NCBI GenBank assembly: GCA_016192905.1
Contig: JACPTG010000004.1
Location: 5,745-69,744 of the forward strand
DNA: 64,000 bases
DNA from: Candidatus Woesearchaeota archaeon
GTDB lineage: Archaea; Nanobdellota; Nanobdellia; Woesearchaeales; UBA10216
Direction of reading: 5' to 3'
Below, in pieces: positions 15,030-61,429 of the stretch (positions are counted from its first letter, which is position 1; each line of letters begins with the position of its first letter). Position numbers and translations under genes: made by a program. The notes below the pieces were generated by a model. The model was not told the DNA's origin and did no database searches. It was given only the letters and a program-made list of their open reading frames with translations.

Positions 15030-15057
15030 GTGTCTAAGCAACTAAATTTTAACCACC

Positions 15058-15065
15058 ATATATAT
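15058..15065 (-). promoter_or_regulatory. TATA-like box upstream of giant 2
   Basis: The minus strand reads gatatatatg, centred about 32 nt upstream of the ATG at 15029, in the 65-nt spacer after the stop of 15107..15952. Confidence 0.4.
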
Positions 15066-15106
15066 CTTGCTGTGATTGCTGTGAGCAATGCAGACTTATG
15101 GGAACC

Positions 15107-15952: not shown

Positions 15953-18900
15953 GGTATGCTGAGTGTGAACTCAACCTCCAAGCTGGTTGGATTAATATTG
16001 CCTGAAATATCCTTGCACTTCACGAATTTCTTAATTTTCCCATTCCATTCCTTTGTGTAACTGTATGCCTTCAAATGAGTCTTCAGATCTGTATCCCTAT
16101 CCAAAACTGTAGCCATTTGATCAAAGGGAACATCTGAACCTCCCACCCTGCACGTTGCCGGTTCGTCTGTGGACACCTCGATTGTCACATCACCGGATGT
16201 AACCAGAGGGGCGGGTCTCACCAATGTGACAACCGGAGGGGTCTTGTCAGAAGCGCTTCCCCCAATAACATTGAAGTCCCTTGAGACGCCGTTATTCGGA
16301 TGGCGAAAAACCATCCCGATTTCAAAATCCGTGACAGTTGCATAAAAAGTGTGCCTGCCTGATGTGAATTTGCTCTCGTACTCACATGGCGCGGATGTAC
16401 ATGTTTTGACAGGTGTTGCACCAGCATCCACATATATCTTGTACCTATAGAGCCCTGTTAGGCTGCTTACAAGCCTGATTTTTACCTGGTCGGCAGTTGT
16501 GGGGGAGGCGGGGTTATTGACAAGGGTTAAAAGCCCCCCTCCACCGACTGATAGATATAATTCCTCGCTGGAGCCTGAGCCTAACCTTGCTGAGTCGGCT
16601 TTTCCAGATACAACAAACATATTTGGCTCTGGGAAAGTTACTGTCAAAGAACATGAGGCGCTGGAGCACTCCTTCACGCTGCGGTCATCAAGGCTGATTA
16701 TAGTGAGATCTGTGTCGGCAAGCTTGCTTCGAACATTTATTGTTACAGGCGAGCCTGCGACCGGCCTTTCAGGCGAATACGAAACATCAACCAAACTTAT
16801 TGCGGGAATTGATATAACTGCGTTACCCGCCGGGAACCTTACCTTATTGCCTGACTTGCCTGTGGCGACTGCATAATAATTCCTGTAAACATTCCGATTA
16901 GTCAGACGAAGAGCGTAACTGCAGGTATTGCTGAAACAGGTGGCCTCTGGGGAGTTATCCATGCCAACGAAAATATCTATCTTGTGCACATCAGGCGAGT
17001 CGCTGGCAGCAGTTATCGTAACTGACTGGCCAATAAACCCTGTTTCAGGGGTATGATAGGCGCTGACAGACAAAGCCTTTGGTCTCGCTGTTCCAGAGAA
17101 AGAGCCGAGGCGCGCGCCAAGCAGCTTCTCATTCCAGGAGCCAAAGGCGTAAGGGTTGGCAAAAACATTTCTCATAATGCTGTTAAATACGGAGCGGAAA
17201 ACCCCCTTATAATAAGCGCAGCCATCATGACACCCAACCTCCAAGTTATAGTTTGCATCAGACTCCTTACAGTCGACCACGCCATCGCTTCCACATCCGT
17301 TTCCAATCAGCCTAGACCACGGGGCTGCTGCCCTGCACTGGTCAGCTGTTACAGGCCTGGAAGGCACATCATAGCAGTTGCCACTTTGACGAATCGAGAA
17401 TAAAGGATTGCCGCGGTCTTCTTCATACTCATCCATAAGGCCTCCAAAGGCATGGCCGAACTCATGCACAACAACACGGGAGCACACAACCCCTGTCTCA
17501 CATTCCTTCCTCACCAGACTGCACGCAGGTTCATTACCATCAGCATAGGCCAAACAGCCCCGCCTTACATTCACCTTTAGACAGGACTCCACTTCGCTGC
17601 AAAGATCAGGATATGAGACGTAAGCATTCCCCTCCAAGTCAGCGAATGCCCGAAACTCGGCGTTTATGAGAAAAACTATATGGCTGTTTGGCATGGCACA
17701 CAAGCCGCCGAAACTATTTAACTCAGATTGCAGATCCTGACTGCCAGAATAACCCTTAAAGTCGCCCTTAAGGACGTCTATATACCAGAAGTTAAACTTG
17801 CCCTTCCCGGATTTAAACGGCTCCAATGACAACAGCCCCGCAGGCCCCTCGACAGAGTTCCGGGCGTACTTAATGAAGTTTTCCCTGCTCTTATATGCCA
17901 CTCCGGCAAAAACTATATTGGCCCTATCACCATCTGCAAGATTGTGGCCTGGAATAAGCTCCTTGCAGACGCCGCCCTGGACCAGGTTCAAAGTTTTTTG
18001 CTCAGACCTTCTGATAGGGCCACGCAACTCCCTCACATCAGCTGAAAACGCCACAGAATACTTCCCCGGAACCAACCCTAAAGTGCTGAAAACGCCGCCA
18101 AACACCTTATCATTCGCAGCCCCATCACCATGATTGCCATCATCAAAAATCTGGATGTTGCCCACCTTCCTGCCTGACTCATCAAACAGCGATGCCTCAG
18201 GCTTCTCAAAAGGCAATGACGAACTGACAGCAGCCCTTACAGAGGCAACAGTTCCAACAACTGCGGACTGGGGGTTTACATTCAACGCCACTGAATACTC
18301 AGAGGTATCAGTGCACTTTCCCTCAACACATTTCAGGCCTCCAAGGCACTTGGAATCTACATCGCATTCTGCCTGCAGGCATTTTCCGCCACTGCAGTAA
18401 TTGCTCTCGCAGTCTTGGGCTGAAAAGCATTGTTGATTGTAACTACATTTCCGCGGGCAGGCCGAGCCGCAGTCAGTATCTGACTCTGCCGGGTCTTTTG
18501 CCCTATTCCCGCATTTGGAAGCGTCAAAGGCGCATTTTCCAGAAGCGCAATAATCAGACAGGCAATCTGCGCCGGCAGAGCACGCCCTGCTGTTTGCACA
18601 CCGAGCCATGCATACTCCACCACAATCAACATCAGACTCGCCTGAATCCAAATTTCCATTGCCACAGCTAAAGCTGCGAAGCTTAAACCTCAGAGCCCCA
18701 TTATAGGGCATTCTCTTGCCGAGAGATGAGCGCTCGGAGTCGCTGACAATTTCGAGGCCGTCAAACGCAGCCTCTGCCTTTCCCTTATCATACACCAACT
18801 CTTTACTGTCTGCATTATAGACTTCGCCGTTTATGGCAACAGACTCCACAAAAAGCTCAGGAGGCTTGGTCTTGAAGATGTAATCATCAAAGCCTGCAAA

Positions 18901-20634
18901 GACCTTCTGGTCATAGGACAACGGAACGGTGTTGGACGAGAACTCCTCAGCAGAAATATCCACAAAATACCAGTCAGAGCAGCCGCCATGCTCGTAATCC
19001 ACGTCATGATAGAACCCATTCGGGTTGTTGGGGTCAACGCCGCAATTCCTGTTCCACGCCCTGCGGCCATCCTCATGGACGAACGACTGCACAAGCCTGA
19101 GCTCGTCCTTGTCATTCCTGAAAATGAAAGTGTCAAACCCTGCGAACTGCTTCTCCTCATCTGAAAGCAAGCCCTTAGCAGGGTCCCTGAACTCCTCAAG
19201 CTTAAGGTTAACAAACCTCCAGTCATCACAGCCGGGATAGTTGTGCTCAGGCCGCGGCGGGCCTGAAAATCCGTGGACATATCGGCCGTCAACAGGACAC
19301 CTCCTATTCCAGGCACGCCAGCCATCCTTATGGACAAAGCTCTGCACCAGCGTATACTTGCCCTTTGAATTAAGAAACTTCATGTCATCAAAGCCTGCAA
19401 AAGTCAAATCAGCCTGGGAAAGAAGCTGCCCAGGCTTAGCCGGGTCAGGAAACAACTCATCCCTCAGGCTTACCAGATTCCAAGATGAACAGGATGAAAG
19501 GTCAATCCCGCGCACTCCTGTACCATCCACAACACAGTCCCTGTTCCACGCACGCCAGCCATCAGAATTCACCACTGACTCAACAATGCGTAGCTTTCCT
19601 GTAGAGTCCTCAAAGACAAAGTTATCATAGCCGTAAAACTTCTGCTCGCCAGAACCCAGGGGCTGGCCTTCAAAAAGCATCCTTTCATTACTAAAAAAGG
19701 CCTCCTGCCAGCCTGTGCAGTCTGCGTTTCCACTTGGAAGCCTGGCAATCCCATTCCTGTCCTTGGCATCCATGCGGCAGGACCTGTAATAATATTTTGA
19801 AGAGTCCTTAAGGACAAATGTCTGGACAATGCGATCCTCTGCCTGATCTGCATTCACAAAAACAACAGCCACCTCCTTATCAGTCGAATAGTCTAAGTAT
19901 ACTGCCTTGTATTCCCTGTAATCAGCTGAATCCTCAACCACCCACTCCTTAATCTTGCTGCCTCCAACCCAAAGCTGCACCACAGCTCCACGCTGTCCCT
20001 TAGCCCTGACAACAAAATTTGCCGGGACCTTCCTGACAGGAACTGTCTCCTCTCCTGGAAGAACCCTCTCCCCCGTCCCCTGACCTGGCTCCGTACTTGT
20101 GGGAGGAGGTGTGCTTGTAGGAGGAACTGTGCCTGTTGGAGTGGATGAGCCCGGAGGTGTGGAAGACGCGGGCCCTGCGCCAGAGGAAGAAGCGCCTGTT
20201 GCAGGAGTAGTTCCTGTCGCTGGAGGAGGCGATGCAGGCTTCTCCCTGCAAAGCTGGTCGCACTTCTTTCCTGATTCTATCGGATAATACGTGTTGCTGC
20301 CTGTGCAAGCGGATTTAACCCGCACAGTGCCGTCAGGGCAGCAGCAACCCCTATTGCACTCCACCACACTGCTGTCGCTGCAATCCTTGCCTTCCTTAAA
20401 ATAAGGGGTCAGACAGGCCTGCTGGGTTTTCTCAATACCTGAATAAAACCTTGGGTAATCAGACGGAGGGGAAGGACAACATTGATTTGCGGTCACCCGG
20501 GATGTTGTGCACAAACGCTCAATGGCGTTAGGGTTCACGCAGCAGCCGTCAGCAGCCTGCACAGCCACTGCAATTACAAGAACAGGGGCTAAAATGGCGA
20601 GCAGCATTAGAATGCGGCGAATCAGCTTGTGCAT
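15949..20634 (-). CDS. Giant secreted mosaic protein (giant 3) with an M64-like HExxH metalloprotease domain and C-terminal Ig-like domains
   Basis: 1,561 aa with ATG at 20634. The signal peptide is followed by the same CCVNPNAIERLC...CCPSPPSDYPRFY...CCCPDGTVRVKSAC head and a P/T/S-rich linker. A split CBM-like module carries IVESVVNSDGWRAWNRDC, LVQSFVHKDGWRAWNRRC and LVQSFVHEDGRRAWNRNC repeats. DRANIVFAGVAY and VVVHEFGHAFGGLMDEY are present (HEFGH at 17452..17466). Confidence 0.9.
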   Translation of the reverse strand: MHKLIRRILMLLAILAPVLVIAVAVQAADGCCVNPNAIERLCTTSRVTANQCCPSPPSDYPRFYSGIEKTQQACLTPYFKEGKDCSDSSVVECNRGCCCPDGTVRVKSACTGSNTYYPIESGKKCDQLCREKPASPPPATGTTPATGASSSGAGPASSTPPGSSTPTGTVPPTSTPPPTSTEPGQGTGERVLPGEETVPVRKVPANFVVRAKGQRGAVVQLWVGGSKIKEWVVEDSADYREYKAVYLDYSTDKEVAVVFVNADQAEDRIVQTFVLKDSSKYYYRSCRMDAKDRNGIARLPSGNADCTGWQEAFFSNERMLFEGQPLGSGEQKFYGYDNFVFEDSTGKLRIVESVVNSDGWRAWNRDCVVDGTGVRGIDLSSCSSWNLVSLRDELFPDPAKPGQLLSQADLTFAGFDDMKFLNSKGKYTLVQSFVHKDGWRAWNRRCPVDGRYVHGFSGPPRPEHNYPGCDDWRFVNLKLEEFRDPAKGLLSDEEKQFAGFDTFIFRNDKDELRLVQSFVHEDGRRAWNRNCGVDPNNPNGFYHDVDYEHGGCSDWYFVDISAEEFSSNTVPLSYDQKVFAGFDDYIFKTKPPELFVESVAINGEVYNADSKELVYDKGKAEAAFDGLEIVSDSERSSLGKRMPYNGALRFKLRSFSCGNGNLDSGESDVDCGGVCMARCANSRACSAGADCLSDYCASGKCAFDASKCGNRAKDPAESDTDCGSACPRKCSYNQQCFSAQDCESNYCSGGKCLQAECDVDSKCLGGLKCVEGKCTDTSEYSVALNVNPQSAVVGTVASVRAAVSSSLPFEKPEASLFDESGRKVGNIQIFDDGNHGDGAANDKVFGGVFSTLGLVPGKYSVAFSADVRELRGPIRRSEQKTLNLVQGGVCKELIPGHNLADGDRANIVFAGVAYKSRENFIKYARNSVEGPAGLLSLEPFKSGKGKFNFWYIDVLKGDFKGYSGSQDLQSELNSFGGLCAMPNSHIVFLINAEFRAFADLEGNAYVSYPDLCSEVESCLKVNVRRGCLAYADGNEPACSLVRKECETGVVCSRVVVHEFGHAFGGLMDEYEEDRGNPLFSIRQSGNCYDVPSRPVTADQCRAAAPWSRLIGNGCGSDGVVDCKESDANYNLEVGCHDGCAYYKGVFRSVFNSIMRNVFANPYAFGSWNEKLLGARLGSFSGTARPKALSVSAYHTPETGFIGQSVTITAASDSPDVHKIDIFVGMDNSPEATCFSNTCSYALRLTNRNVYRNYYAVATGKSGNKVRFPAGNAVISIPAISLVDVSYSPERPVAGSPVTINVRSKLADTDLTIISLDDRSVKECSSASCSLTVTFPEPNMFVVSGKADSARLGSGSSEELYLSVGGGGLLTLVNNPASPTTADQVKIRLVSSLTGLYRYKIYVDAGATPVKTCTSAPCEYESKFTSGRHTFYATVTDFEIGMVFRHPNNGVSRDFNVIGGSASDKTPPVVTLVRPAPLVTSGDVTIEVSTDEPATCRVGGSDVPFDQMATVLDRDTDLKTHLKAYSYTKEWNGKIKKFVKCKDISGNINPTSLEVEFTLSIP

Positions 20635-21542
20635 ATCACTTCACCAGTATACTGTTTTTTTGAAGCAAATTTAAGGTAGCTTGAATCGGGAAGCCCGGGG
20701 TCAAGCGCAGGATTGTCCAGCGCAAACAGGTAGAGATTCTTGGTCACGCCGCTTACAGCCAAGATTTTCTCACCTTTTTTTCCCGGCTTAATTGTAATCT
20801 CTCCCTGACCGGACTTCTTATGCCTTGGCCCAGACCAGTCTGTACCCTGACAGTTATCTAGGATGGTCTGGGCGACCTTGGCCGCCTCATCATATGAAGC
20901 CATGAATGGGCTGTTTGAAGACCATGAAAAGTCAGAAAAAAGGTACTCTGAGGCACCGTCATGCACTGTCACGTTGGCCAAAAGCTGGACAAACATTTCC
21001 TTGTCGTTAAGGAGCGTGACTATATCAAAAGACTGCCGCTCAATTTCAACATCATAGCCTATGGCTTTCATTTTGGCAGCCACATCGCAAACCACTTTTG
21101 AATTTGCAGGCGGCGTGTAACCTGGACAAATATCGGCGTTTGCAGGCCTACTGCGAGGGTTCAACCGCATAGACAGGTATGCCTTCAGCCGCTCGGCGAG
21201 CCTTTCCTTATCCTGCCTGTGAACAACAAGCTCTATAGGCCTCTCGTCAAGAATATATGCGACCTTATAATCCCCATCATTAAACGCCTCTCCCTCAGTT
21301 ACGGGGTCTGAGGAATCACCGCCCTGACTGCAATAGATGTAGCCGCCCTGGCGTGCAGCCAGCTCAAGCCCTGCTGCAGCCGTGGATGCAATGCACTGCT
21401 CAACATAAGCCCTGACCGGCGCTGCGCTGTCATAACTCTTCAGCTTCACGCTGCTCTTTGGGGAAGTCACCCAGAAGACTATGCCTGCGGACACCATGAG
21501 TAGGACACCTATTATTATGAATACAGAGACCTGCGCCCTCAT
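20622..21542 (-). CDS. Membrane-anchored protein with pilin-like (class III-like) N-terminus
   Basis: 306 aa. The N-terminus is MRAQVSVFIIIGVLLMVSAGIVFWV (short basic N-terminus, then Q, then a hydrophobic helix). Its ATG overlaps the giant 4 stop (ATGA at 21539-21542) and its 3' end overlaps the giant 3 start by 13 nt. Confidence 0.8.
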   Translation of the reverse strand: MRAQVSVFIIIGVLLMVSAGIVFWVTSPKSSVKLKSYDSAAPVRAYVEQCIASTAAAGLELAARQGGYIYCSQGGDSSDPVTEGEAFNDGDYKVAYILDERPIELVVHRQDKERLAERLKAYLSMRLNPRSRPANADICPGYTPPANSKVVCDVAAKMKAIGYDVEIERQSFDIVTLLNDKEMFVQLLANVTVHDGASEYLFSDFSWSSNSPFMASYDEAAKVAQTILDNCQGTDWSGPRHKKSGQGEITIKPGKKGEKILAVSGVTKNLYLFALDNPALDPGLPDSSYLKFASKKQYTGEVICTS

Positions 21543-24500
21543 TTTACCCGTAAGCCTGAAGTAAGGGAAGTCCAGGCATCAAACAGCCTGCTGTCAGTGC
21601 CAGGAGACCTGCTGGCTGTTATTGACTGCCTTGAGCCTGACCTTGAGCAGCTGTTCTGCTGGATAGCGTTGGAGGCTGCGCAGAAGTCTGTGTTGAAGTT
21701 ATCGTATGACACTGAAAGCTGCTCTACCTGGGAACTGCCTGAGCAGCCTGAAGTTACAGAGCCCTCAATTTTCTTTCCTGATGCAGCGGACATTGAATAC
21801 AGCTTCTGCAGCCCAGAGCCCTTCTTCAGCTCTGAAGCAGCAGACCTTATGGAATTCCATTCTGAAGCAGGGCTGAAGCCAGCATTGTTATAAAAGAAAA
21901 TTCCTGTTGAGCTGTCGAAGTATAGATACTCGTAACCTGAGTAGCACTGGGTAAGGCCTGCTGGCTGTGATGAAGTGCAGGAGTATCCTTGCCTCTGCGC
22001 CTCATTAACAATGCTGTTAAGCTCTGCCACGACATCCGGAGATGAAACTGCGCCGCCAAATGCAACGAAACTTGCCCCCGAATCCTTGTGCTCAAGCACG
22101 CACAGGTCTGCAATGCATGGCTCGGGCTTATTGGAGAGCGGGCATGGCGACTTTAGCAGCGTTTCGGCAAGCCTGGACTCAGCGTAAAGATAATCATACC
22201 TGTTCAGAACCTCACCATACGGGCCGCAGACAAGGGCTGACTCAGGCCTCCTCTTAGCCTTGAAGTCAAGCAGCATGGAAGCGACAAATTTATTCTTTGA
22301 AACCCAGCTGCCTGAACTGCAGACAGCGCTGCCAAGCGAGCCGCCTGAAGCAACGCACCTGCTGGCCTGGCTGTCGTAACACTCACCAGCAGTGCAGCAG
22401 CCCTCCATGCAGCCGTCCTGACCCTTCCTTACGGTTTCACCATTATCGTCACCACAGCAAACTCCTCCAACAGTCCTGCACTGGGTAATCCTGAAGGCAC
22501 CAGCCCACTTCAGCCGCTCAGGCCCTATTGAACGCCTATCTGATTCGGGAACTATGTCATTGCCGTCGAATGCTGCCGCTGCGGCGCCCTTATCGTATAT
22601 CACCCTGCTGAAGTCCTCAGCCTCAATCTTATTGCCATCTATGGCTATGTAATCCACAAGCAGGTCCCGGTCTCCAGGCTGATTTGAAGTGAAGATGAAG
22701 TTGTCATTCGCAAACAGCTTCCCATCAGGAGCGCCCGAAGGCTCATCACCGATAGGAACGAACCTCCAGTCGTCACAGCCGCCTGCACCCCGCTTCAAGC
22801 CCTTTGGATCAGCAGGGTCAACACGACAAACCCTGTTCCACGAGCGCTGGCCGTCGCTATGTATCAGGGAGTGGATGAGGCTGTAAGAGCCGTCAGCCTT
22901 CTGCCACGCAAGTGTGTCAAATCCTGAGAAAACAGAATCGGCCGGGGAGATCTCATTTCCGGCTGCGTCCTTGAAACCCTCTCCCACCAGACTTCCGCCG
23001 CTGAAAGCAGAGCAGCCGCCGAAGCCGAACTCAGAGGAATCCTCAACGCAGAATCGGTTGAAATAACGCTTGCCATCCTGCTGAATAAGCGTCAGGACAA
23101 GCTGCTGCCTGCCCTGAGAGTTGGTAAAAACGTAATTGTCCAAGTCCCTGTACTTCCTTGCCGACGCGTCAAGCCCTGTGTCAAGCTCTGAGAGGTCCCA
23201 TGTTTTGAACTCGCCGCATTTTTGCACAGTGGTGCCGAACATGGAATCAGGAAGAACCTCGCACTTCCTCCTGAAGGCGAGCACGCCATCCTTGTCAATG
23301 AAAGTCTGCACAATATACTCCTTACCATTGACGGTATACACGTACTTGTCATGGCCTATGAATTCCTGATTCGCATCTGGAATTGAGTTTCCAGACTTAT
23401 CCTTAATGCTGATGCCGGTAACGTCCACAGCGCGGTAAGCCTCACAGTCAGCACCGTCAATGGGATGGTAGCCGTCATTGCGCAGCGGGCATCTCCTATG
23501 GTAAACAGTCCTCTTATCAGAGCCGACAAAGGACTGCACAACCCACTTCACCGCAGCGGTCTCATAGTCATCAGGAAATACGACTGCAATCTCCTGGCCT
23601 GGTGTATAAGAGAGGGGGACAGAGTAATCTGCATACTGGTCAGAATTCACAGACCACGACTGCAGGAATTGGTTGTTGACAAAGACTGCCATGTGAGGCC
23701 AGCCAGCGCCATTCTGGCCCTTGGCGCGGACAGTGAGCTGCCTGCCTGCACCAATGCGAAGCGAGCCAGCATAGCTAATCAGTTCCCTGGAGCTAAGAGT
23801 ATACAGATTATCAAACCACTCTGCCTCAGAGTTACCCTTATCATAAAAAACCCTAGCGGGGTCCTCAGCCTGAACTGTCTCAGAGCCGATTGTTATTGAA
23901 TCAACAATCAAATTGCGGTCAGTAGGCCCTGACAAGCTGAAGCTGAATGTGTCAAAGCCCGCGAACAAGCCTTGGCCTGCGTTAACTGTTCCATCGGCAT
24001 TATAGACTATTTCCTGGCTGAGGTCAACAAACCTCCAGCCTGTGCATTTTGCAGGGTCTATCCCGTGCAAGCCGACGCCCTCAACAGGGCAGACACGGTT
24101 CCAGCCCCGGCGGCCGTCATTATGAACCAGCGACTGGACCATCTGGAGCTTTGAAGATGAATCTGTGAAAAGGTAAGTGTCAATCCCTGCGAATACCTTG
24201 TCGCCTGCTGCGAGCTGGGCTCCATCAGCGCCCTTGACCTCCTCGTCAGCCATGTTCACCTGCCGCCAACTTGAACATGTGGAGGGGTTATAGCCATAAG
24301 CATTGGCGCCGTCATAATCACACTCCCGGTTGAAACCCAGGCTGCCTGACTTTGCGGACAATGACTGGACTATATGCTTCCGGCCGCCGGCATCTGCGAA
24401 GATGAAGTTGTCCATGTCTGAGTAAGCGCGGGCAGCGGAATCCACTTTTGTATCTTCAGAGGCTAAATTCCAAAGCTCCCAAGGGGTGCAAGTGGCAGGA

Positions 24501-25900
24501 TTAACAGAATGGGGAAAGGCACCGTCATACTGGCATTTGTTGCGCCAGGCACGCTTCCCATCCTGATGAATCATTGTCCTGACAAGGTACTTCTTTCCAT
24601 CCGAGCCATCATAAAAATATGCGTCAAAGCCGGCAAGCCTGTGATCTGCCGCAGAAAGAATGCTGCCTGCTGCATCAGTCACCCCTTCAGTTGTCAAGTC
24701 AACCTCATTCCATCTTGAGCAGGTCTGGCTCTCAAAGCCATGGAGGGAATCTGCCTTGAAAGAGCACCGCCTGTTCCAGGCCTTATCGCCAGTTTTAGAA
24801 TAGAAGGACTGCAAAACATACGAAGGGCTCTGCTCTGAATAGTAATCAATGGGAAACACCACTGCGACCTCATCACCCTGCGTGTACCCAGAGGGCAGCT
24901 TTGCCTCGTAAACAGCAGGCCTCCGGTAATTATCAACAGTCCACTCAGCGAACTTGACAAAGGAATTGCCTGACTTCCTGTAAGCCTGCATCAAAGGAAG
25001 GCCGTTGCCCTGGTCAGCAGATGCGACTATCCTGATTGTTGGAACAGCAGCTTCCTGGCCTATCCTGAAATTCCTGCCAGCAAGATTTCCAACGCCACAG
25101 GGCTTCCTCACATGAACCCACCAGCTGTAAGCAACCCCAGGCTGGACATTAACTGTAATTGAATTGGAATTGTAGCTGTTTATGCAGACAAAATGCTGGT
25201 TGCAGTTATTCCGGCTGTCCTTAGCAATATTCTTCCCTGGGGTGTCCACGTTTACCCTTATGTCATAGGTTGCGCCTGCCACAGGCTCCCACTCCAAAGT
25301 AACCTCCTGCGTGGAAGCTTGAAATGTCTGGGCCTCAGCAGGGCTTTTCGGGGTGGGCTGACTGGGGGAACAAGCGGATTCGCAAAGCCTATACTGCCTT
25401 ACCCTGTCGCCATGCAATTCCTTCAGCACGCCAAGGTCAACCTTGCCGTTCTCACACGCAGGGAGATTGCAGAGAGGAGATGCAGAACCTTCGCATGACT
25501 TAAGGCTTGGGGAATTCGCAGCACCCCCTTCCAAGGGATTAAGGCAAATCCTGTACTTCCTAACTATCTTGTTGTCATTGTGAAAGCCCTCATAAACGCC
25601 AGCCTCAAACATGCCTGAAGGGCAGGCAGGAGGATTGCAAGTGCCGCCGCCCCCTGTACTTCCCTCACAACCCCTGACCTCGCCGCCGGCACTGGAGCAC
25701 AAACGGTATCCAGTAACAGACTTATCAGCCGAGCCGTAGTTATCGTGAATGTTATTCGTAAGGCCGACTGAGCCTGAAGGGCACTGGCCTGGCTCGCAGG
25801 CAGCGCCATTATCAGAGCCGCATTCCACCACGGCTGCACTGGCTGAGAAAAGTGCCAGAAGAAGGATAAATGGCACCAAAATCAGCTTTATCGCACCCAT
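21539..25900 (-). CDS. Giant secreted mosaic protein (giant 4) with two tandem split CBM-like/WNR-repeat modules and no protease motif
   Basis: 1,453 aa with ATG at 25900 and signal peptide MGAIKLILVPFILLLALFSASAA. It has three ~50-aa Cys units and an Fn3-like segment. Two modules follow, each with four repeats (for example QMVQSLVHNDGRRGWNRVC and SLIHSLIHSDGQRSWNRVC), closed by DRNLIVDSITIGSETVQAED and DRDLLVDYIAIDGNKIEAED. Confidence 0.9.
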   Translation of the reverse strand: MGAIKLILVPFILLLALFSASAAVVECGSDNGAACEPGQCPSGSVGLTNNIHDNYGSADKSVTGYRLCSSAGGEVRGCEGSTGGGGTCNPPACPSGMFEAGVYEGFHNDNKIVRKYRICLNPLEGGAANSPSLKSCEGSASPLCNLPACENGKVDLGVLKELHGDRVRQYRLCESACSPSQPTPKSPAEAQTFQASTQEVTLEWEPVAGATYDIRVNVDTPGKNIAKDSRNNCNQHFVCINSYNSNSITVNVQPGVAYSWWVHVRKPCGVGNLAGRNFRIGQEAAVPTIRIVASADQGNGLPLMQAYRKSGNSFVKFAEWTVDNYRRPAVYEAKLPSGYTQGDEVAVVFPIDYYSEQSPSYVLQSFYSKTGDKAWNRRCSFKADSLHGFESQTCSRWNEVDLTTEGVTDAAGSILSAADHRLAGFDAYFYDGSDGKKYLVRTMIHQDGKRAWRNKCQYDGAFPHSVNPATCTPWELWNLASEDTKVDSAARAYSDMDNFIFADAGGRKHIVQSLSAKSGSLGFNRECDYDGANAYGYNPSTCSSWRQVNMADEEVKGADGAQLAAGDKVFAGIDTYLFTDSSSKLQMVQSLVHNDGRRGWNRVCPVEGVGLHGIDPAKCTGWRFVDLSQEIVYNADGTVNAGQGLFAGFDTFSFSLSGPTDRNLIVDSITIGSETVQAEDPARVFYDKGNSEAEWFDNLYTLSSRELISYAGSLRIGAGRQLTVRAKGQNGAGWPHMAVFVNNQFLQSWSVNSDQYADYSVPLSYTPGQEIAVVFPDDYETAAVKWVVQSFVGSDKRTVYHRRCPLRNDGYHPIDGADCEAYRAVDVTGISIKDKSGNSIPDANQEFIGHDKYVYTVNGKEYIVQTFIDKDGVLAFRRKCEVLPDSMFGTTVQKCGEFKTWDLSELDTGLDASARKYRDLDNYVFTNSQGRQQLVLTLIQQDGKRYFNRFCVEDSSEFGFGGCSAFSGGSLVGEGFKDAAGNEISPADSVFSGFDTLAWQKADGSYSLIHSLIHSDGQRSWNRVCRVDPADPKGLKRGAGGCDDWRFVPIGDEPSGAPDGKLFANDNFIFTSNQPGDRDLLVDYIAIDGNKIEAEDFSRVIYDKGAAAAAFDGNDIVPESDRRSIGPERLKWAGAFRITQCRTVGGVCCGDDNGETVRKGQDGCMEGCCTAGECYDSQASRCVASGGSLGSAVCSSGSWVSKNKFVASMLLDFKAKRRPESALVCGPYGEVLNRYDYLYAESRLAETLLKSPCPLSNKPEPCIADLCVLEHKDSGASFVAFGGAVSSPDVVAELNSIVNEAQRQGYSCTSSQPAGLTQCYSGYEYLYFDSSTGIFFYNNAGFSPASEWNSIRSAASELKKGSGLQKLYSMSAASGKKIEGSVTSGCSGSSQVEQLSVSYDNFNTDFCAASNAIQQNSCSRSGSRQSITASRSPGTDSRLFDAWTSLTSGLRVK

Positions 25901-25986: not shown

Positions 25987-26049
25987 TAGCAGGCTGTGGC
26001 TTCCTTGGATTCAGCAGCCCCTTTCAGGAGACCAGTAGCGTGAACCGCC
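25987..26049 (+). repeat. MITE-like intergenic repeat, copy A (L-arm type)
   Basis: Sequence is tagcaggctgtggcttccttggattcagcagcccctttcaggagaccagtagcgtgaaccgcc. It shares the identical 18-mer aaatagcaggctgtggct with copies B and F and ends with the same gtgaaccgcc as copy F. Confidence 0.8.
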
Positions 26050-53480: not shown

Positions 53481-53498
53481 TCTTTCTTAGTGTTCCAA

Positions 53499-54548
53499 AT
53501 GCGCATCCTAAAGTCTTTCCTGAAGCATGGCGAAATCACTGTTGAGGTAACCTCACTTGATGACCTGTGGGCCCTGAGCCAGGTTATAGAGCCCGGCGAC
53601 CATGTCAAGGGAAGAACCCTGAGAAGGATAAAGGTAGGAGACCGCGACTCCACTGAAACCGTGAGGAAGCCTGTATGGATAAAGCTCACGGTTGAAAACG
53701 TGGAGTTCCACAAGTATTCAAACGTGCTGAGGGTTGGCGGAATGATAACAGAAGCGCCTGAAGACGTTCCCAAGGCGCACCACACATTCAGCTTTGAAGA
53801 GGGCACTGTAGCCATGATAACCAAGGAAAAATGGCTGAATTACCAGCTTTCCAGAATCAGGGAAGCGTCTCAAGAAAGGAATGAAAGGATTGTAGTGTGC
53901 GCATTTGACAGGGAGGAAGCGGTTTTCGCGCTCCTGCTCTCCCAGGGGTATAAGGTGCTGGCTGAAATCAGGGGCCAGGTTGAAAAAAAAGGGCAGAAGT
54001 CAGAGTCGAGGAACTTCTACAAGGAGATAATCAAACTCCTGGCAGAATATTCCGAAAGGTTCAATGCCCAGCACCTGATAGTTGCGTCGCCATCATTCTG
54101 GAAGGATGAGCTCCTCAAGGAGCTTGGAAGAAACGAATTAAAAACAAAAATAGTCACAGCCACATGCAGCAGCGTGACAAAAGGCATTGATGAAGTGCTG
54201 AAAAGCAGCGAGCTCAAGGGCGTGCTAAGGCAGGAACGCACTGCAAAGGAATCAAGGCTTGTTGAAGAGCTGTTCCTCGAGATTTCAAGACAGGGCAACG
54301 CCAGCTACGGGCTTGCCGAGACAGAAAACGCATCGCAGGCAGGGGCAGTCAGGATACTGATGGTAACGGACGGCCTTATCCAGAAGACAAGGCAGGATGG
54401 GAGCTTTGGAAGGATAGAAAAGATTATGCGCAGCGCCGACACAGCCGCAGGGGAAGTGGCAATCCTCAACAGCGACAACGACCCTGGAAAAAAGCTGGAC
54501 GGCCTCGGAGGGATTGCTGCGCTGCTGAGGTATAAGACGGGGTATTAG
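53499..54548 (+). CDS. pelA: Pelota (mRNA surveillance / ribosome rescue factor)
   Basis: MRILKSFLKHGEITVEVTSLDDLWALSQVIEPGDHVKGRTLRRIK... shows the eRF1-like domain order. The first ATG is at 53499 (the track start at 53490 is GTG). Confidence 0.9.
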   Translation: MRILKSFLKHGEITVEVTSLDDLWALSQVIEPGDHVKGRTLRRIKVGDRDSTETVRKPVWIKLTVENVEFHKYSNVLRVGGMITEAPEDVPKAHHTFSFEEGTVAMITKEKWLNYQLSRIREASQERNERIVVCAFDREEAVFALLLSQGYKVLAEIRGQVEKKGQKSESRNFYKEIIKLLAEYSERFNAQHLIVASPSFWKDELLKELGRNELKTKIVTATCSSVTKGIDEVLKSSELKGVLRQERTAKESRLVEELFLEISRQGNASYGLAETENASQAGAVRILMVTDGLIQKTRQDGSFGRIEKIMRSADTAAGEVAILNSDNDPGKKLDGLGGIAALLRYKTGY

Positions 54549-54558
54549 TTTTCAACGA

Positions 54559-55122
54559 TTAATTTTTTAATGCTTTAGGGTCATCTGAAAACATTATTTT
54601 ACTAATGAGTTTAGCCACATTTTCATGAGATTTATTCACGGCTTCTACAACGGTCTTGCCTTTAATTAATTCTTCTGCTATTATGTTAGAAGTTTCTATC
54701 ACTGGTTTTGCGAGAGGGTCTTGCAAAGGTCGGGACTCCATTTCATTTAAATGCGCAATCCAAAACTCATTCTTATAGCCAATGAACGCCTTACAACCAT
54801 ATTTAACAGCCTCTTTACCTAGTTCTTTAAGGCAATCGCAAGCTCTAGCAAAGGTGACTGAATTGGAAAAGCAATCCTTATCATTAAGTCCCAAAAGTTC
54901 TTCGTCCTCATTTTTCATCATACTTGATGAGGTTCCGTGACCGTTAAAAAAAATGAAGGACGGCCCGTGTTTTTTAATTCTATTCTTAACATTCTCCTTA
55001 TTAAGCTCTTTACATTCAAGAACAACTACATCAAATTTCTTCTTAGCTTGTTCAATTACAGACTGCGTATATTTTTTGAGGTATCGGCTGCCTATATCAT
55101 GATCGGTGAGAATCGTTATCAT
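54559..55122 (-). CDS. Minimal caspase-fold-like (clan CD-like His/Cys dyad) protein, hypothetical
   Basis: 187 aa. A hydrophobic strand plus His-Gly (SFIFFNGHG, His62) and a hydrophobic strand plus Ala-Cys (SVTFARAC, Cys95) lie 33 residues apart. The gene sits in the AT-rich island. Confidence 0.55.
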   Translation of the reverse strand: MITILTDHDIGSRYLKKYTQSVIEQAKKKFDVVVLECKELNKENVKNRIKKHGPSFIFFNGHGTSSSMMKNEDEELLGLNDKDCFSNSVTFARACDCLKELGKEAVKYGCKAFIGYKNEFWIAHLNEMESRPLQDPLAKPVIETSNIIAEELIKGKTVVEAVNKSHENVAKLISKIMFSDDPKALKN

Positions 55123-55330
55123 AGTTGCTCAGTGTAACCATTTTCCTTATAAAATTCAATTGAAATTCTATTGCTGCTTTTCCAATTGATGTCTCATTAT
55201 CAACTTCATCTATTAGCTGATCTCTTGTAAAATCGCCAAATTTTCCTATTGAAAAGCTTACGTTTGGCGGGATTGCGGCTAAACGCTTTTTTACAAGTAT
55301 TTTTATTTCTTCGGTATAATCTTTTTCCAT
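55097..55330 (-). CDS. Small hypothetical protein (island gene 3)
   Basis: The ATG at 55330 (MEKDYTEEIK...) lies 1 nt after the stop of the upstream gene. The 3' end overlaps the start of the 187-aa gene by 26 nt. Confidence 0.55.
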   Translation of the reverse strand: MEKDYTEEIKILVKKRLAAIPPNVSFSIGKFGDFTRDQLIDEVDNETSIGKAAIEFQLNFIRKMVTLSNYDNDSHRS

Positions 55331-55331
55331 A

Positions 55332-55526
55332 TTAAAGCACACCTATATGTTTCAGCTGATCGAGTATTTTTGGGGCCCTTTTTGTGTTATTTTCTATTTC
55401 CCCTCTACAAGCCGCCCATGATAAAGACTCATCATCTATCACTGCCACAATCTCTACCCTTAAAGGTATAGGTATGTTAGCGTAAATTTTTAAAAATTTC
55501 GATTTAGACATTTCATATTCATTCAT
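55332..55526 (-). CDS. Small hypothetical protein (island gene 2)
   Basis: 64 aa. Its ATG at 55526 forms an ATGA overlap with the stop of the unlisted micro-ORF upstream. Confidence 0.55.
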   Translation of the reverse strand: MNEYEMSKSKFLKIYANIPIPLRVEIVAVIDDESLSWAACRGEIENNTKRAPKILDQLKHIGVL

Positions 55527-55642
55527 TCTAACAGCACCGCCCTAACTTTTTTGCCAACCCAATGCTTAGGCACGTAAACCCTACCACTATTCCCGCTAAC
55601 CTGAACTACTTTTTCAACCACTTCATAGCCTTCCATTCGCAT
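55523..55642 (-). CDS. AbrB/SpoVT-like micro-protein resembling DUF2080 (not in ORF track, 39 aa)
   Basis: Hand translation from the ATG at 55642 gives MRMEGYEVVEKVVQVSGNSGRVYVPKHWVGKKVRAVLLE, then TGA at 55525-55523. An in-frame GTG at 55660 is an alternative start. The G-N-S-x-x-V-x-V-P-K-x-W-x-G-K-K-V string matches my memory of archaeal DUF2080 proteins. Confidence 0.6.
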   Translation of the reverse strand: MRMEGYEVVEKVVQVSGNSGRVYVPKHWVGKKVRAVLLE

Positions 55643-55684
55643 CTCGACAGGCTTAACCACAATTTAGCTATATTGTAGCCACCT

Positions 55685-55718
55685 ATATTAATGGATTTCT
55701 GATATTAATGGATTTCTG
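55685..55718. promoter_or_regulatory. Perfect 17-nt tandem direct repeat (x2) upstream of the island operon, candidate operator
   Basis: atattaatggatttctg at 55685-55701 is repeated exactly at 55702-55718, just upstream (minus-strand sense) of TATA-like tatattg/tatatta elements at 55663-55690. Confidence 0.5.
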
Positions 55719-55736
55719 TATTGCAAAATACGCTTC

Positions 55737-56381
55737 CTAAATTAGTTCTTCAGGAATGCCTTTCTGCATTATCTCAACCCTTGAGTGCGCCACTGACTTC
55801 TCAAACTTCTCAGCGTCATCAGCACTCCCTACTATGCTGCCGTAATGCATCGGTACAGCAATTTTCGGCCTTATGATGGCGGCTGCATGGGCTGCCTCAC
55901 GCGCATCCATCGTGTATGTCCCGCCCACAGGAAGAAATGCGACATCAGCCTTAATGCCCGCCATCTCATTGATGAAATCGGTATCCCCTGCATGGTAGAA
56001 CCTTTTCCCATCAAGCTCAATCACATAGCCAACCCAATCATCATGCCTGTTGTGGAATTTTTTCCCTATGTTATAGGCCGGCACTGCCGAGATAACTGCG
56101 CCATAAATGCTTACCTTCCCGCCCGGCTGGATGTTCCTGAACTCAGCGTAATGGAACCTGCCTGCCGCTATCTTGCTCTGGCAGCCAATGGGGGCAATGA
56201 TTACAGTCTCCGGGCCTGCAATTTTCTTCAGGTCAGCAGGGCTGCAGTGGTCATAATGCGGGTGGGTAATCAGAACCAAGTCTGCCTTTTCCCCCTCCTG
56301 CATCTGGAAAGGGTCAATGCAAACAGTCCTTGACCCTGCTATCCTAAACCCAGCGTGGCCCAGCCATTCGATATTCATCAT
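55737..56381 (-). CDS. Metallo-beta-lactamase-fold hydrolase (UPF0173-like)
   Basis: LVLITHPHYDHCSP carries the HxHxDH motif. Length is 214 aa. Confidence 0.85.
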   Translation of the reverse strand: MMNIEWLGHAGFRIAGSRTVCIDPFQMQEGEKADLVLITHPHYDHCSPADLKKIAGPETVIIAPIGCQSKIAAGRFHYAEFRNIQPGGKVSIYGAVISAVPAYNIGKKFHNRHDDWVGYVIELDGKRFYHAGDTDFINEMAGIKADVAFLPVGGTYTMDAREAAHAAAIIRPKIAVPMHYGSIVGSADDAEKFEKSVAHSRVEIMQKGIPEELI

Positions 56382-58511: not shown

Positions 58512-58642
58512 AACGCAGAGAACCTCAACGCTGTTTATAAATATTTTTAATGAAGCCTATGCGCAGTTAAACTGTTTTCCTTGCAGGCCCACATTTAAAT
58601 TAGAAGCGATACAACTGATAAACTACCATTAGCTTACACAAA

Positions 58643-58722
58643 TAGCAGGCTGTGGCTACCTTGGATTTAACAGCCCCTTTCGGGAGACTCGTGGCGTGTA
58701 CGGCCAGGCTTCGTGAACCGCC
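58643..58722 (+). repeat. MITE-like intergenic repeat, copy F (L-arm type)
   Basis: Sequence is tagcaggctgtggctaccttggatttaacagcccctttcgggagactcgtggcgtgtacggccaggcttcgtgaaccgcc. It aligns with copy A and with the reverse complement of copy E. Confidence 0.8.
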
Positions 58723-58861
58723 CCCTGTTTACTTCCTCTTGCTTGATGAACTCTTTCAATTGTACAGCTTACATTGTACCGTACACCAAAAAAAGGGCCT
58801 TTCAATAACTCGCATCCGCATCGGGATAAATTTTTATAGCTCAAATTTCAGAATTTGCCGC

Positions 58862-61429
58862 ATGTATGAGATAATGATTGGCCGGAACGAGGCTGACAAG
58901 CGGAGATTCGGGGACAAGGGCGCGTTTCTCCTTGCGCGGCATTATGTGAAGATGGGCCAGACAACCTCCCTCTCGGCCAACATCCACATGGATGCGCTCA
59001 GGCCGCACGTCGTATTTGTAGTGGGCAAACGCGGAAGCGGGAAATGCGTAACAGGAGACACTCTGGTACCCCTGTCAGATGGCCGCATTGTTCAGGTAAA
59101 AGACTTGGAAAATGATACTGGCCAGGTTTTGGCGCTCAATAGCGAGCTCAAGATGACTGCTGCCGGCAAATCAGCTTTTTTCAGGCGAACTGTTAATAAA
59201 ATCCTTAAGGTGATTCTTAAGAGCGGCAAGGAAATAAAATTGACTCCTGAACACCCGTTGCTGACTATCAGCGGCTGGCAGAAGGCTTCTGACCTTTCAG
59301 GAGGCAGCAGGATTGCTACCCCTCGCAGGCTCGATAATTTTGGGAACAAGCCTGTGCCTGAAAGTGAGGTTAAACTGCTGGCCTATTTGATAGCTGAAGG
59401 CCATCTTAAGCAAGGTGTTTTGTTTGCCAACATGGATGACAAAATAATTGCAGAGTTTAAGGAAGCCCTGCATGAGTTCGATCCCTTCTGTGAGCTTGTT
59501 AAATTAAAGGAGGGGGATTATCGGGTTTATACCCGGGGCAGGGTTTCAGGCAAGACAAGAATAAGGGAGTTTCTTGAATTGCACGGTCTCAAGGGAAAGT
59601 TGTCAGGCGACAAGTTCATCCCCGAGAAAATAATGCAGCTTCCCAGGAAATTGCTGGCGGTCTTCCTGAACAGGCTATTTACCTGTGACGGAAGTATTTA
59701 CAAGTCAAGAAAGGGCAAAAGGGTCATGTGGCAGATTTCGTACTCCTCCAAGTCTGAGAGGCTGATAAGGGAGGTCCAGCATCTTCTGTTAAGGTTTGAT
59801 GTCGTCGCCCGTTTACGAAATAAGATAACAAGGATTAATGACAAGGAAATCCCTTCCTTTGAGTTGGTCTTTGATGGTGAAAACCTGCTTAACTTCTGCG
59901 AGCAGATTGGCTTTATCAGCCACAAGGCTGTAAGGGAGGAGATAGCTATTGAGGAGACAGTTGTGGTAAAGCGGAATCCTAATGTAGATACAGTGCCTAA
60001 AGGCATTTGGAATTTATACAGGCCTGAAAGCTGGGCGCAGGTTGGAAGGGAAATGGGTTACAAGCATCCCAAGAGCTTAAGGGAAAGCGTAAGATACTCG
60101 CCTGGCAGGGCAAAGTTACTGCAGATTGCCTCTGTGGTGAAAGATGATTATCTGTACAAGCTTGCAACATCAGACATCTTCTGGGATGAAATCCGCTCTA
60201 TTGAGGAAATTTCAGGGTCTTTTGAGGTTTTTGATTTGAGTGTCCCAGAATATCATAATTTTGTGGCTAATGATATTATTGTTCACAACAGCTACACATC
60301 AGGCGCCATGGCTGAAAGCATGATGCTGCTCCCCCCTGAGGTTACGGAAAACCTGTCAATAATAATGCTTGACACAATGGGGATTTTCTGGACAATGAAG
60401 TACGAGAACAGGGAGGATGCAGCCCTCCTGAAGCAGTGGCACATCGGCTACCAGCCGCTTAACATCCAGATTTACACCCCTGCAGGCTTCTATCCCTCCT
60501 ACAAGGAGAAGGGAATAAGCGACTTCCCATTTTCCATAAGGACCTCCGAGCTTTCTGTAAACGACTGGCTGATGACATTCGGCCTTGGAATGAACGACCC
60601 TGTTTCAATAGTGATTTCAAGGGCGGTAAGCGCGCTGCAGGAAAAAGGGAGTGATTACTCCGTAAAGGAAATTATAGGCGCTGTCAATGCCGATGCAAGG
60701 GCAGGCAAGAATGAGCGGGAAGCAGCCGAGAACCTTTTTGGAGGGGCTGACAAGTGGGGGCTGTTTGACGAGAAAGGGACGAAATTCGGTGACCTCGTGT
60801 CCGGAGGCCAGATTACCATACTGGATGTCAGCTGCTATGCCTCGCTCACAGGGGTTGAAAGCATCAGGTCCCTGGTCATAGGGCTTGTCTCAAAGAAGCT
60901 GTTTGAGGAGCGAATGTCTGTCCGCAAATTTGAGGAGCTTGCAATGATAAAGTCAAAGCTCACCCTGGAATCGCAGAGGGCTGAAAAGAGAAAGCTGCCC
61001 CTCATCTGGATAATGGTGGATGAAGCGCATGAGTTCCTCCCGTTCCAGGGGCACACCGCAGCAACAGACGCGCTGCTCACGCTCCTCAGGGAGGGAAGGC
61101 AGCCGGGAATAAGCCTCGTGCTGGCAACCCAGCAGCCGGGAAAGATACACACAGACGTAATGACTCAATCAGACATTATCATCGCCCACAGGCTCACCTC
61201 CAAGATAGACATAGACTCGCTCGGCCTCCTCATGCAGAGCTACATGAGGGAGAACGTTGACAAACTGCTGGCAGAGCTTCCTGACGTCAAGGGCGCTGCC
61301 CTGATTTTTGATGACACAAACGAAAGGATGTACAATTCGCAGATAAGGCCGAAGATGACCTGGCACGGCGGCTCCAGCCCGATTGCCCTAAGCGAAAGGA
61401 AAGAGCTCTGGAGCAGCATCAAGATTTAG
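58862..61429 (+). CDS. HerA/FtsK-superfamily (DUF87-like) P-loop ATPase, interrupted by an intein
   Basis: The ATG at 58862 gives MYEIMIGRNE... The Walker A motif GKRGSGK|S is split by the intein. The C-extein begins SYTSGAMAE and carries LIWIMVDEAHEF (Walker B) and LATQQPG. The track start at 58652 (GTG) lies inside repeat copy F. Confidence 0.85.
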   Translation: MYEIMIGRNEADKRRFGDKGAFLLARHYVKMGQTTSLSANIHMDALRPHVVFVVGKRGSGKCVTGDTLVPLSDGRIVQVKDLENDTGQVLALNSELKMTAAGKSAFFRRTVNKILKVILKSGKEIKLTPEHPLLTISGWQKASDLSGGSRIATPRRLDNFGNKPVPESEVKLLAYLIAEGHLKQGVLFANMDDKIIAEFKEALHEFDPFCELVKLKEGDYRVYTRGRVSGKTRIREFLELHGLKGKLSGDKFIPEKIMQLPRKLLAVFLNRLFTCDGSIYKSRKGKRVMWQISYSSKSERLIREVQHLLLRFDVVARLRNKITRINDKEIPSFELVFDGENLLNFCEQIGFISHKAVREEIAIEETVVVKRNPNVDTVPKGIWNLYRPESWAQVGREMGYKHPKSLRESVRYSPGRAKLLQIASVVKDDYLYKLATSDIFWDEIRSIEEISGSFEVFDLSVPEYHNFVANDIIVHNSYTSGAMAESMMLLPPEVTENLSIIMLDTMGIFWTMKYENREDAALLKQWHIGYQPLNIQIYTPAGFYPSYKEKGISDFPFSIRTSELSVNDWLMTFGLGMNDPVSIVISRAVSALQEKGSDYSVKEIIGAVNADARAGKNEREAAENLFGGADKWGLFDEKGTKFGDLVSGGQITILDVSCYASLTGVESIRSLVIGLVSKKLFEERMSVRKFEELAMIKSKLTLESQRAEKRKLPLIWIMVDEAHEFLPFQGHTAATDALLTLLREGRQPGISLVLATQQPGKIHTDVMTQSDIIIAHRLTSKIDIDSLGLLMQSYMRENVDKLLAELPDVKGAALIFDDTNERMYNSQIRPKMTWHGGSSPIALSERKELWSSIKI
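59045..60289 (+). mobile_element. Intein (415 aa) with LAGLIDADG homing-endonuclease domain
   Basis: It starts with Cys (CVTGDTLVPLSDGRIV) and ends IIVHN, followed by Ser +1. The two LAGLIDADG-like blocks are LLAYLIAEGHL and FLNRLFTCDGSI. Confidence 0.9.

Follow-up and report, generated by a model that had tools for sequence, protein, structure and literature searches.

Between the convergent genes for pelota and a metallo-β-lactamase (MBL)-fold hydrolase, the 64,000-nucleotide (nt) stretch of contig JACPTG010000004.1 analyzed here (the window) carries a short AT-rich island of four minus-strand open reading frames, ORF1 to ORF4. Our analysis indicates that the island is very probably a recent horizontal insertion of foreign origin into a 3-nt spacer between the two flanking genes. 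With comparable confidence, its gene content is a chimera and not a conserved four-gene unit: a conserved three-gene cassette, ORF2-ORF3-ORF4, onto which a DUF2080 gene (ORF1) has been added. The product of ORF4 is likely, as judged from its predicted structure, a minimal single-domain cysteine protease of the caspase/CHAT fold with a His62/Cys95 dyad.

The island and its genes

The island spans 54549-55736 and has a G+C content of 0.357, compared to 0.503 for the whole window, which makes it the minimum among 1,257 sliding windows of 1,188 nt each. In a 200-nt profile the G+C falls from ~0.50-0.56 in pelota to 0.33-0.40 over 54500-55800 and returns to ~0.50 in the MBL gene. An initial annotation of this DNA, made from the sequence by eye, had offered hand counts of 24/60 for 54601-54660, 19/60 for 55201-55260 and 36/60 for pelota at 54301-54360; the counts are exact, and the sliding-window analysis that it proposed is the one that places the island lowest. 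A reference set of 28 host genes has a G+C of 0.510 +/- 0.015 and a third-position G+C (GC3) of 0.569 +/- 0.034. Measured against this set, ORF2-4 (G+C 0.33-0.36, GC3 0.24-0.33) lie at z-scores of -7 to -12. The composition of ORF1 is distinct from that of ORF2-4 (G+C 0.464, GC3 0.457).

All four ORFs are intact and are packed as first described. ORF1 encodes 39 amino acids (aa) from an ATG (55523-55642) or 45 aa from a GTG (55523-55660), and it shares an ATGA overlap with ORF2 (64 aa, 55332-55526). A 1-nt gap separates ORF2, the first cassette gene, from ORF3 (77 aa, 55097-55330), which stands directly upstream of the predicted protease gene and overlaps it by 26 nt (ORF4, 187 aa, 54559-55122). 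ORF2 and ORF3 are both conserved small proteins, identified as such by their collinearity in related loci. To the left lies pelota on the plus strand (53490-54548; eRF1 domains 1-3 by Pfam), and to the right the MBL-fold hydrolase gene on the minus strand (55737-56381; Pfam Lactamase_B_3, E value 1.8e-28); both gene ends were further placed by the junction comparison described below.

The island and both of its junctions are spanned by six contigs from six different sequencing runs, at 99.9-100% identity. Since these contigs are independent, the island is not an assembly artefact. The sharp compositional step, and the fact that the same samples hold low-GC Woesearchaeota with the cassette, would be in keeping with DNA of a low-GC organism having been joined into a 50% G+C contig, but six independent runs crossing the junctions leave such a chimera with practically no credence. 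The island was found to lack transposase and integrase genes, a tRNA, terminal inverted repeats and target-site duplications, and searches of it with Rfam and ARAGORN found no non-coding RNA and no tRNA target. A viral origin was considered and set aside, as there were no relatives among IMG/VR contigs and no meaningful PHROGs matches.

The empty site in a sister genome

A scan of a genome collection with pelota identified a sister genome (L011; metagenome-assembled genome contig CAZDCW010000021), whose flanks are 94-97% identical to those of the window over ~14 kb. At this locus in L011 the pelota stop codon is followed by 3 nt and then by the stop codon of the MBL gene, and there is no island. 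By blastn, 1,209 nt of the window (54538-55746) correspond to 24 nt in L011, and we delimit the inserted segment by this alignment together with the junction sequences, the clustering of mismatches and the G+C profile. Mismatches to L011 crowd into the last ~10 nt of both flank genes, with 0-2 mismatches in the neighboring 60-nt blocks. The last three codons of pelota, with its stop, read MTA* in L011 and TGY* in the window; the MBL gene ends in GAG TTG GTT TGA (ELV*) in L011 and in GAA CTA ATT TAG (ELI*) in the window. The initial annotation had suggested horizontal acquisition on the basis of the compositional contrast and had proposed the pelota-MBL junction in relatives as a check. The empty site, with 3 nt between the stops, and the GC3 of ORF2-4 (0.24-0.33 against 0.57 +/- 0.03 for the host) bear this suggestion out.

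The edges of the island carry a direct repeat, ATTAGTT(C)TTCA, which is imperfect and 11/12 nt long, at 54544-54554 (ATTAGTTTTCA) and 55741-55752 (ATTAGTTCTTCA). It may be a microhomology used in the insertion, yet it is short enough to have arisen by chance. A simple deletion mediated by this repeat cannot yield the junction sequence of L011 and was discarded as a route between the two states.

The direction of the event deserves consideration, as the same difference would arise if ancestral genes had been deleted in the lineage of L011 and the window lineage had experienced no insertion. Only one close comparator is available, and the junction sequences differ on both sides. The more distant relatives (L012-L015) keep a divergent pair of pelota and its neighbor hyp387, and the MBL neighbor is absent from them, so these outgroups cannot polarize the event. 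What polarizes it instead is composition, together with the phyletic pattern and the truncation of ORF4. The GC3 of ORF2-4 is 7-10 standard deviations below that of the host genes, the nearest homologues are found in low-GC Woesearchaeota at identities of <= 57-67%, and a deletion would need to restore two full ORFs of unchanged length, 3 nt apart. On these grounds we regard deletion as very unlikely and retain insertion. When the exact MBL or pelota proteins of the window were sought beside an empty site, only the island-bearing contig was on record.

L011 also has two intergenic segments of its own that are absent from the window, at 4540-4777 (238 nt) and 9946-10057 (~112 nt), corresponding to window positions ~52280 and ~58625; these are additional small indel polymorphisms between the two genomes. 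The genome is labeled 'uncultured Methanosarcinales archaeon', a label that may be wrong, as hyp387/pelota synteny and the relatives of its pelota point to Woesearchaeota/Nanoarchaeota.

The three-gene cassette in other genomes

The four proteins of the window served as tblastn queries against 84 related loci that we retrieved. The order and orientation of ORF2, ORF3 and ORF4 are kept in ~80 other loci, wherever the upstream DNA suffices, with gaps or overlaps of 1-8 nt between the genes and typical values of -8 to +2 nt. In ~15 loci tblastn does not recover ORF3, whose sequence has diverged too far, yet a gap of ~240 nt persists between ORF2 and ORF4. The usual sizes of the products elsewhere are ~64 aa for ORF2, ~73 aa for ORF3 and ~210 aa for ORF4. 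Median ratios of nonsynonymous to synonymous substitution (dN/dS) of 0.12, 0.11 and 0.12, respectively, indicate purifying selection on all three. The concern, raised at the outset, that these ORFs might not be conserved as coding sequence falls away with these values and with the homologues themselves.

No conserved neighbor was found among the related loci beyond the three cassette genes, and in particular no conserved fourth gene upstream of ORF2. The DUF2080 protein had no match in any of the 84 loci. The single four-gene operon of the initial annotation does not survive this comparison: only ORF2, ORF3 and ORF4 co-occur, in ~80 loci, and the DUF2080 gene is present in none and differs in composition. 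ORF1 is a lineage-specific addition outside the conserved cassette.

The cassette is hosted for the most part by DPANN-like archaea of low G+C, and by bacteria in at least one case. In one locus on a 921-kb contig it adjoins RadA in an archaeal context (L028, 7092-8156), and in another it adjoins a bona fide PNPase in a bacterial context (L088, 3398-5491). Occurrence in both archaeal and bacterial contexts implies repeated transfer, and the presence of the cassette in one of two sister genomes, with its absence from that locus in the other, means that the cassette moves as a unit. In the 49 loci with enough flank, the G+C of the cassette is about that of its surroundings (mean difference -0.006), such that in its usual low-GC hosts the cassette does not stand out in composition, a point that the initial annotation had missed; the difference of -0.146 in the window is an extreme case. 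Decayed copies also occur, with an in-frame stop in one ORF2 (L023, 364-561) and with ORF4 split or shortened in three loci (L053, L055 and L087). The cassette is a unit that is inherited and transferred as such, translationally coupled, under selection and mobile between genomes.

A predicted mini-caspase

ORF4 has 38 close homologues, the named ones being from Woesearchaeota, and the closest of them, in Woesearchaeota, are <= 57% identical. A profile search of 1.84 billion representatives returned 1,997 clusters (at 50% identity) with E <= 1e-3 and 818 with E <= 1e-10. Nearly all family members are 205-220 aa in length, and this near-uniformity makes them a large single-domain family.

The AlphaFold2 (AF2) model of ORF4, computed from a 19-sequence alignment, has a predicted local distance difference test score (pLDDT) of 92.7 and a predicted template modeling (TM) score of 0.88. 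In a Foldseek search of the PDB with this model, SAVED-CHAT (8tl0) ranked first (E 9e-6, TM-score 0.60-0.63), followed by caspase-11, -4, -3 and -7, and generic flavodoxin and CheY folds ranked below the CHAT proteins and caspases. Structural matches in the viral library BFVD were clostripain C11-related, caspase-domain and metacaspase proteins. In clan CD peptidases, adjacent central strands carry the catalytic His-Gly and Cys at their C-terminal ends. The motifs FFNGHG (His62-Gly63) and RAC (Cys95) of ORF4 are invariant among 19 diverse homologues, and His62 and Cys95 directly follow the predicted strands 56-60 and 89-93. The caspase-like His/Cys dyad that had been noticed in the sequence is supported by the high-scoring model, by its best PDB matches and by the invariance of both motifs.

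At the level of sequence, the relationship is far more distant. Peptidase_C25 was matched below threshold by two of the 19 ORF4 members (E 0.002-0.01, the match at E 0.01 having 15.6 bits against a cut-off of 23). There was no sequence match for ORF4 in an hmmsearch of the PDB, and none by hhalign to human caspase-3. ORF4 meets no curated sequence model of a clan CD family (C14, C11, C13, C25, CHAT and others), and accordingly we place it in none of these families.

The window copy of ORF4 ends ~23 residues early in comparison to its ~210-aa homologues, which had gone unnoticed in the initial annotation. The missing tail is the conserved segment ...SLQALVxNDxxLxFEG..., which includes two nearly invariant positions; by analogy with caspase topology, it would constitute the last strand of the sheet. 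The stop codon of ORF4 lies 10 nt from that of pelota, so the truncation coincides with the edge of the island.

The two small cassette proteins

The AF2 model of ORF3 (pLDDT 84.8) consists of a helix, a β-hairpin, a helix and a long helix. Structural modeling had been proposed as a check on all the products; it gave the caspase/CHAT-like predicted fold for ORF4, and for ORF3 no significant match to a PDB fold, the best being prefoldin at E 1.6. With 42 and 35 members, respectively, ORF2 and ORF3 gave only scattered, chance-level matches against Pfam and PDB profiles, and a word-index search for homologues of ORF2 returned only itself. The two proteins have in common a motif of the type 'IP..v.fsiG...ft.deli.Ev...t.iGk.il', and hhalign aligned them with a P value of 0.0018 and a probability of 15%; ORF2 may be a distant paralogue of ORF3. 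A resemblance of ORF2 to sigma-70 region 4 was also entertained and found no support in the Pfam scans.

The DUF2080 gene and its upstream repeat

By its sequence, ORF1 is a bona fide small DUF2080 (SpoVT/AbrB-like) protein, as its early description as AbrB/DUF2080-like had anticipated. It matches NCBIfam NF033496 at 2e-16 (59.3 bits, cut-off 22) and Pfam PF09853 at 7.8e-7 (29.2 bits, threshold 21.5), with a weak match to MazE_antitoxin. No other DUF2080 copy was found in the window or in the related loci. In the NetFlax network, one protein with a DUF2080 domain has been validated by experiment as an antitoxin (PMC10440598), and CalpT, which the CRISPR protease CalpL has as its substrate, carries DUF2080 as its C-terminal domain (bioRxiv 10.1101/2024.05.08.593097).

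The perfect 17-nt tandem repeat reported ahead of the genes is present at 55685-55718, as identified by TRF and by a repeat finder. Its unit, ATATTAATGGATTTCTG (minus strand CAGAAATCCATTAATAT), occurs in two copies there and nowhere else in the window. Located 25-58 nt upstream of the ORF1 GTG, and with a TATA-like TTAATAT in both copies, the repeat is in our view a candidate promoter and/or operator.

The properties of ORF1 bear on whether the island might be a functionally dead relic, the trimmed fragment of a larger mobile element such as a DUF2080-associated transposon or an integrated element with cargo. NF033496 is defined as a transposase-associated family, yet a transposase is absent; the conserved C-terminus of ORF4 is gone exactly at the island edge; the composition of ORF1 is unlike that of ORF2-4, suggesting a mosaic; and neither target-site duplications nor terminal inverted repeats are seen. 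A relic of this kind would, however, hardly be expected to keep four intact ORFs with precise translational coupling (the ATGA overlap and the 1-nt gap), the island is fixed at 99.9-100% identity in six samples, and the empty site in L011 is clean, without the scar of a larger element. We therefore judge it unlikely that the island is dead.

Proposed function

We envision the following sequence of events and roles. A cassette native to low-GC ultra-small archaea has very probably been inserted, as ~1.2 kb, between the pelota and MBL genes, with a small, unrelated DUF2080/AbrB-type gene and the 17-nt TATA-containing repeat grafted onto its head. The cassette would be a self-contained, translationally coupled protease module in which the protease is the effector. 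The two small and possibly paralogous proteins would be its stoichiometric partners, binding the protease as inhibitor or adaptor, or else as cleavable substrate, in an arrangement that resembles toxin-antitoxin (TA) systems or abortive infection. At the repeat-bearing promoter, the DUF2080 protein would bind DNA as an autoregulator, or else serve as an additional antitoxin-like partner. The window protease, with ~23 C-terminal residues lost at the insertion boundary, is possibly impaired. We assign a probability of about 0.5 to this explanation as a whole, mechanism included. Within it, a TA- or defense-like role (addiction or abortive infection) is a tentative suggestion. The broadest form of the proposal is more speculative still: ORF2-ORF3-ORF4 might constitute an undescribed and very widespread class of protease-based conflict/addiction module in ultra-small archaea (DPANN) and bacteria, in which a sensor-less ~210-aa mini-caspase is restrained by, or acts on, two small paralogous partners and which moves as a 1-kb cassette.

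The genes that surround the cassette elsewhere are mostly housekeeping genes. A few are related to TA or defense, namely nucleotidyltransferases, AbiE pairs, MADS, an OLD-family nuclease, PIN and MazE. Among 145 non-redundant neighbor proteins a handful are AbiE, MADS, PDC or AriA-like, with no background rate to which this number can be compared. One cassette stands beside an OLD-family nuclease (AAA_15 + TOPRIM; L092, 1236-2903), and another beside MazE, PIN and DUF3368 genes (L007, 188-765 and 6914-8890). None of the four proteins had a PADLOC-DB v2 match at E <= 1. The resemblance to TA or defense cassettes drawn in the initial annotation is plausible as a hint of function, with no match among the defense models and few TA or defense genes among the neighbors. 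Its statement that no described system matches the gene combination stands, given the lack of PADLOC and PHROGs matches and of any description of the ORF2-ORF3-ORF4 cassette in full-text literature searches.

Several observations weigh against our explanation. The predominance of housekeeping neighbors gives no clear defense-island signal, and no model in PADLOC, PHROGs, Pfam or NCBIfam is above threshold for ORF2, ORF3 or ORF4. The protease assignment leans on predicted structure, with weak links in sequence. The polarity of the event, insertion and not deletion, leans on a single comparator genome and on composition. The route of insertion finds no explanation in a mobility gene, a target-site duplication or a terminal repeat. 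Lastly, the truncation of ORF4 may leave the module non-functional in this host.

The main rival to a TA or defense function is a housekeeping role, in which the cassette would serve regulated proteolysis or protein maturation, with the small proteins as adaptors or substrates, and would have arrived in the window by incidental gene transfer. Such a role would suit the great size of the family, its uniform length and the strong purifying selection on it, as well as the agreement in G+C between cassette and host flanks in most loci, the mostly housekeeping neighbors and the absence of PADLOC matches. On the other hand, the neighborhood is not conserved past the three genes, the cassette is present in one sister genome and absent from the other, some copies are pseudogenized (L023, L053/L055 and, by truncation, that of the window), and its archaeal and bacterial contexts imply repeated transfer. 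We consider a housekeeping role possible and only slightly less likely than the TA- or defense-like role, which we keep as our working suggestion.

Host and other features of the window

A proteasome-activating nucleotidase, an archaeal topoisomerase I, pelota and a protein with an intein are all encoded in the window, whose host is an archaeon. The best matches to pelota (42-49% identity) and the local synteny are with low-GC Woesearchaeota and Nanoarchaeota metagenome-assembled genomes, and from these sequence relationships the host would be a DPANN-like archaeon of ~50% G+C.

Three giant tandem minus-strand ORFs (1,612, 1,561 and 1,453 aa) alternate with ORFs of ~281-306 aa over 10203-25900, and the first of the giant ORFs includes a secondary low-GC stretch (~10950-11400, ~0.42). 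A 925-aa ORF at 58652-61429 contains an intein N-terminal splicing region and has partial matches to intein-bearing replication proteins. A conserved motif of ~35-70 nt (...AGCAGGCTGTG...CAGCCCCTTTCGGGAGACTCGT...) is found repeatedly close to where large genes start in each of the two sister genomes, at 58640-58709 and 26008-26032 in the window and at 4597-4666 and 10105-10139 in L011; it could be a leader or a small repeated element.

Significance and comparison with known systems

Proteases of the caspase/CHAT fold have a central part, as effectors, in cell death and antiviral immunity, be it in animals, in bacterial cyclic-oligonucleotide-based anti-phage signaling systems (CBASS) or in type III CRISPR systems. 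To our knowledge, the prokaryotic ones are large, sensor-fused proteins. The ORF4 family, which falls into ~2,000 clusters when grouped at 50% identity, belongs to the archaea that have been studied least, apart from one or more bacterial cases, and is recognized by no annotation library above threshold. Should it be part of a mini-caspase conflict module, it would be among the simplest caspase-fold death or defense effectors known, and might represent the ancestral CHAT/caspase immune protease in its minimal form. A TA or defense function would make it a new effector class, in one of the few defense or addiction modules proposed for DPANN-like archaea, and a housekeeping function would point to an unknown proteolytic pathway in reduced genomes. 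The window offers just one instance, and a truncated one, but it reveals a large, unannotated and experimentally tractable family, and the sister genomes with and without the cassette at one locus provide an unusually clean natural experiment.

Compared to insertion sequences and integrative elements, the island differs in having no transposase or integrase, no terminal inverted repeat, no target-site duplication and no tRNA target; only the imperfect 11/12-nt edge repeat is present. ORF1 resembles the transposase-associated DUF2080 family NF033496 in sequence (59.3 bits against the cut-off of 22) and differs from it in setting, since it adjoins ORF2 and the MBL hydrolase gene and heads a protease cassette, with no transposase.

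A thematic likeness exists to the CalpL-CalpT-CalpS module of type III CRISPR systems, in which CalpL is a SAVED-Lon protease, CalpT a MazF-DUF2080 anti-sigma factor and CalpS a sigma factor similar to those of the ECF (extracytoplasmic function) group (bioRxiv 10.1101/2024.05.08.593097). Both are three-part protease modules, a signaling one in the case of Calp, with a DUF2080 domain beside the protease. The likeness is thematic only, as the protease predicted here is of the caspase fold and not Lon-SAVED, and neither MazF nor a sigma factor nor a CRISPR locus accompanies the cassette here.

With type II and tripartite TA modules that have SpoVT/AbrB-type antitoxins (MazE-like, or the DUF2080 antitoxin of NetFlax; PMC10440598), the cassette shares small, co-directional, overlapping genes, a variable context and transfer between genomes, and the gene at the head of the window copy belongs to the DUF2080 family, which has a validated antitoxin member. 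ORF2 and ORF3 differ in having no recognized DNA-binding or antitoxin domain, and DUF2080 lies outside the conserved cassette. The would-be effector differs as well, being a predicted caspase-fold protease, and we know of no such protease among TA toxin families.

The closest comparison is with the clan CD peptidases: the C14 caspases and metacaspases, the CHAT proteases (SAVED-CHAT 8tl0 and TPR-CHAT/Craspase), clostripain C11 and gingipain C25. ORF4 is like them in its predicted α/β/α fold and in an invariant His-Gly after one central strand and Ala-Cys after the next. It differs in its small size (~210 aa, 187 in the window), in being a single domain with no SAVED, TPR or NACHT sensor or repeat domain, in its lack of Pfam or PDB membership at the sequence level, and in being always preceded by two small proteins. 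If the model holds, the cassette is a protease module of the caspase fold reduced to a minimum, with three genes and no sensor.

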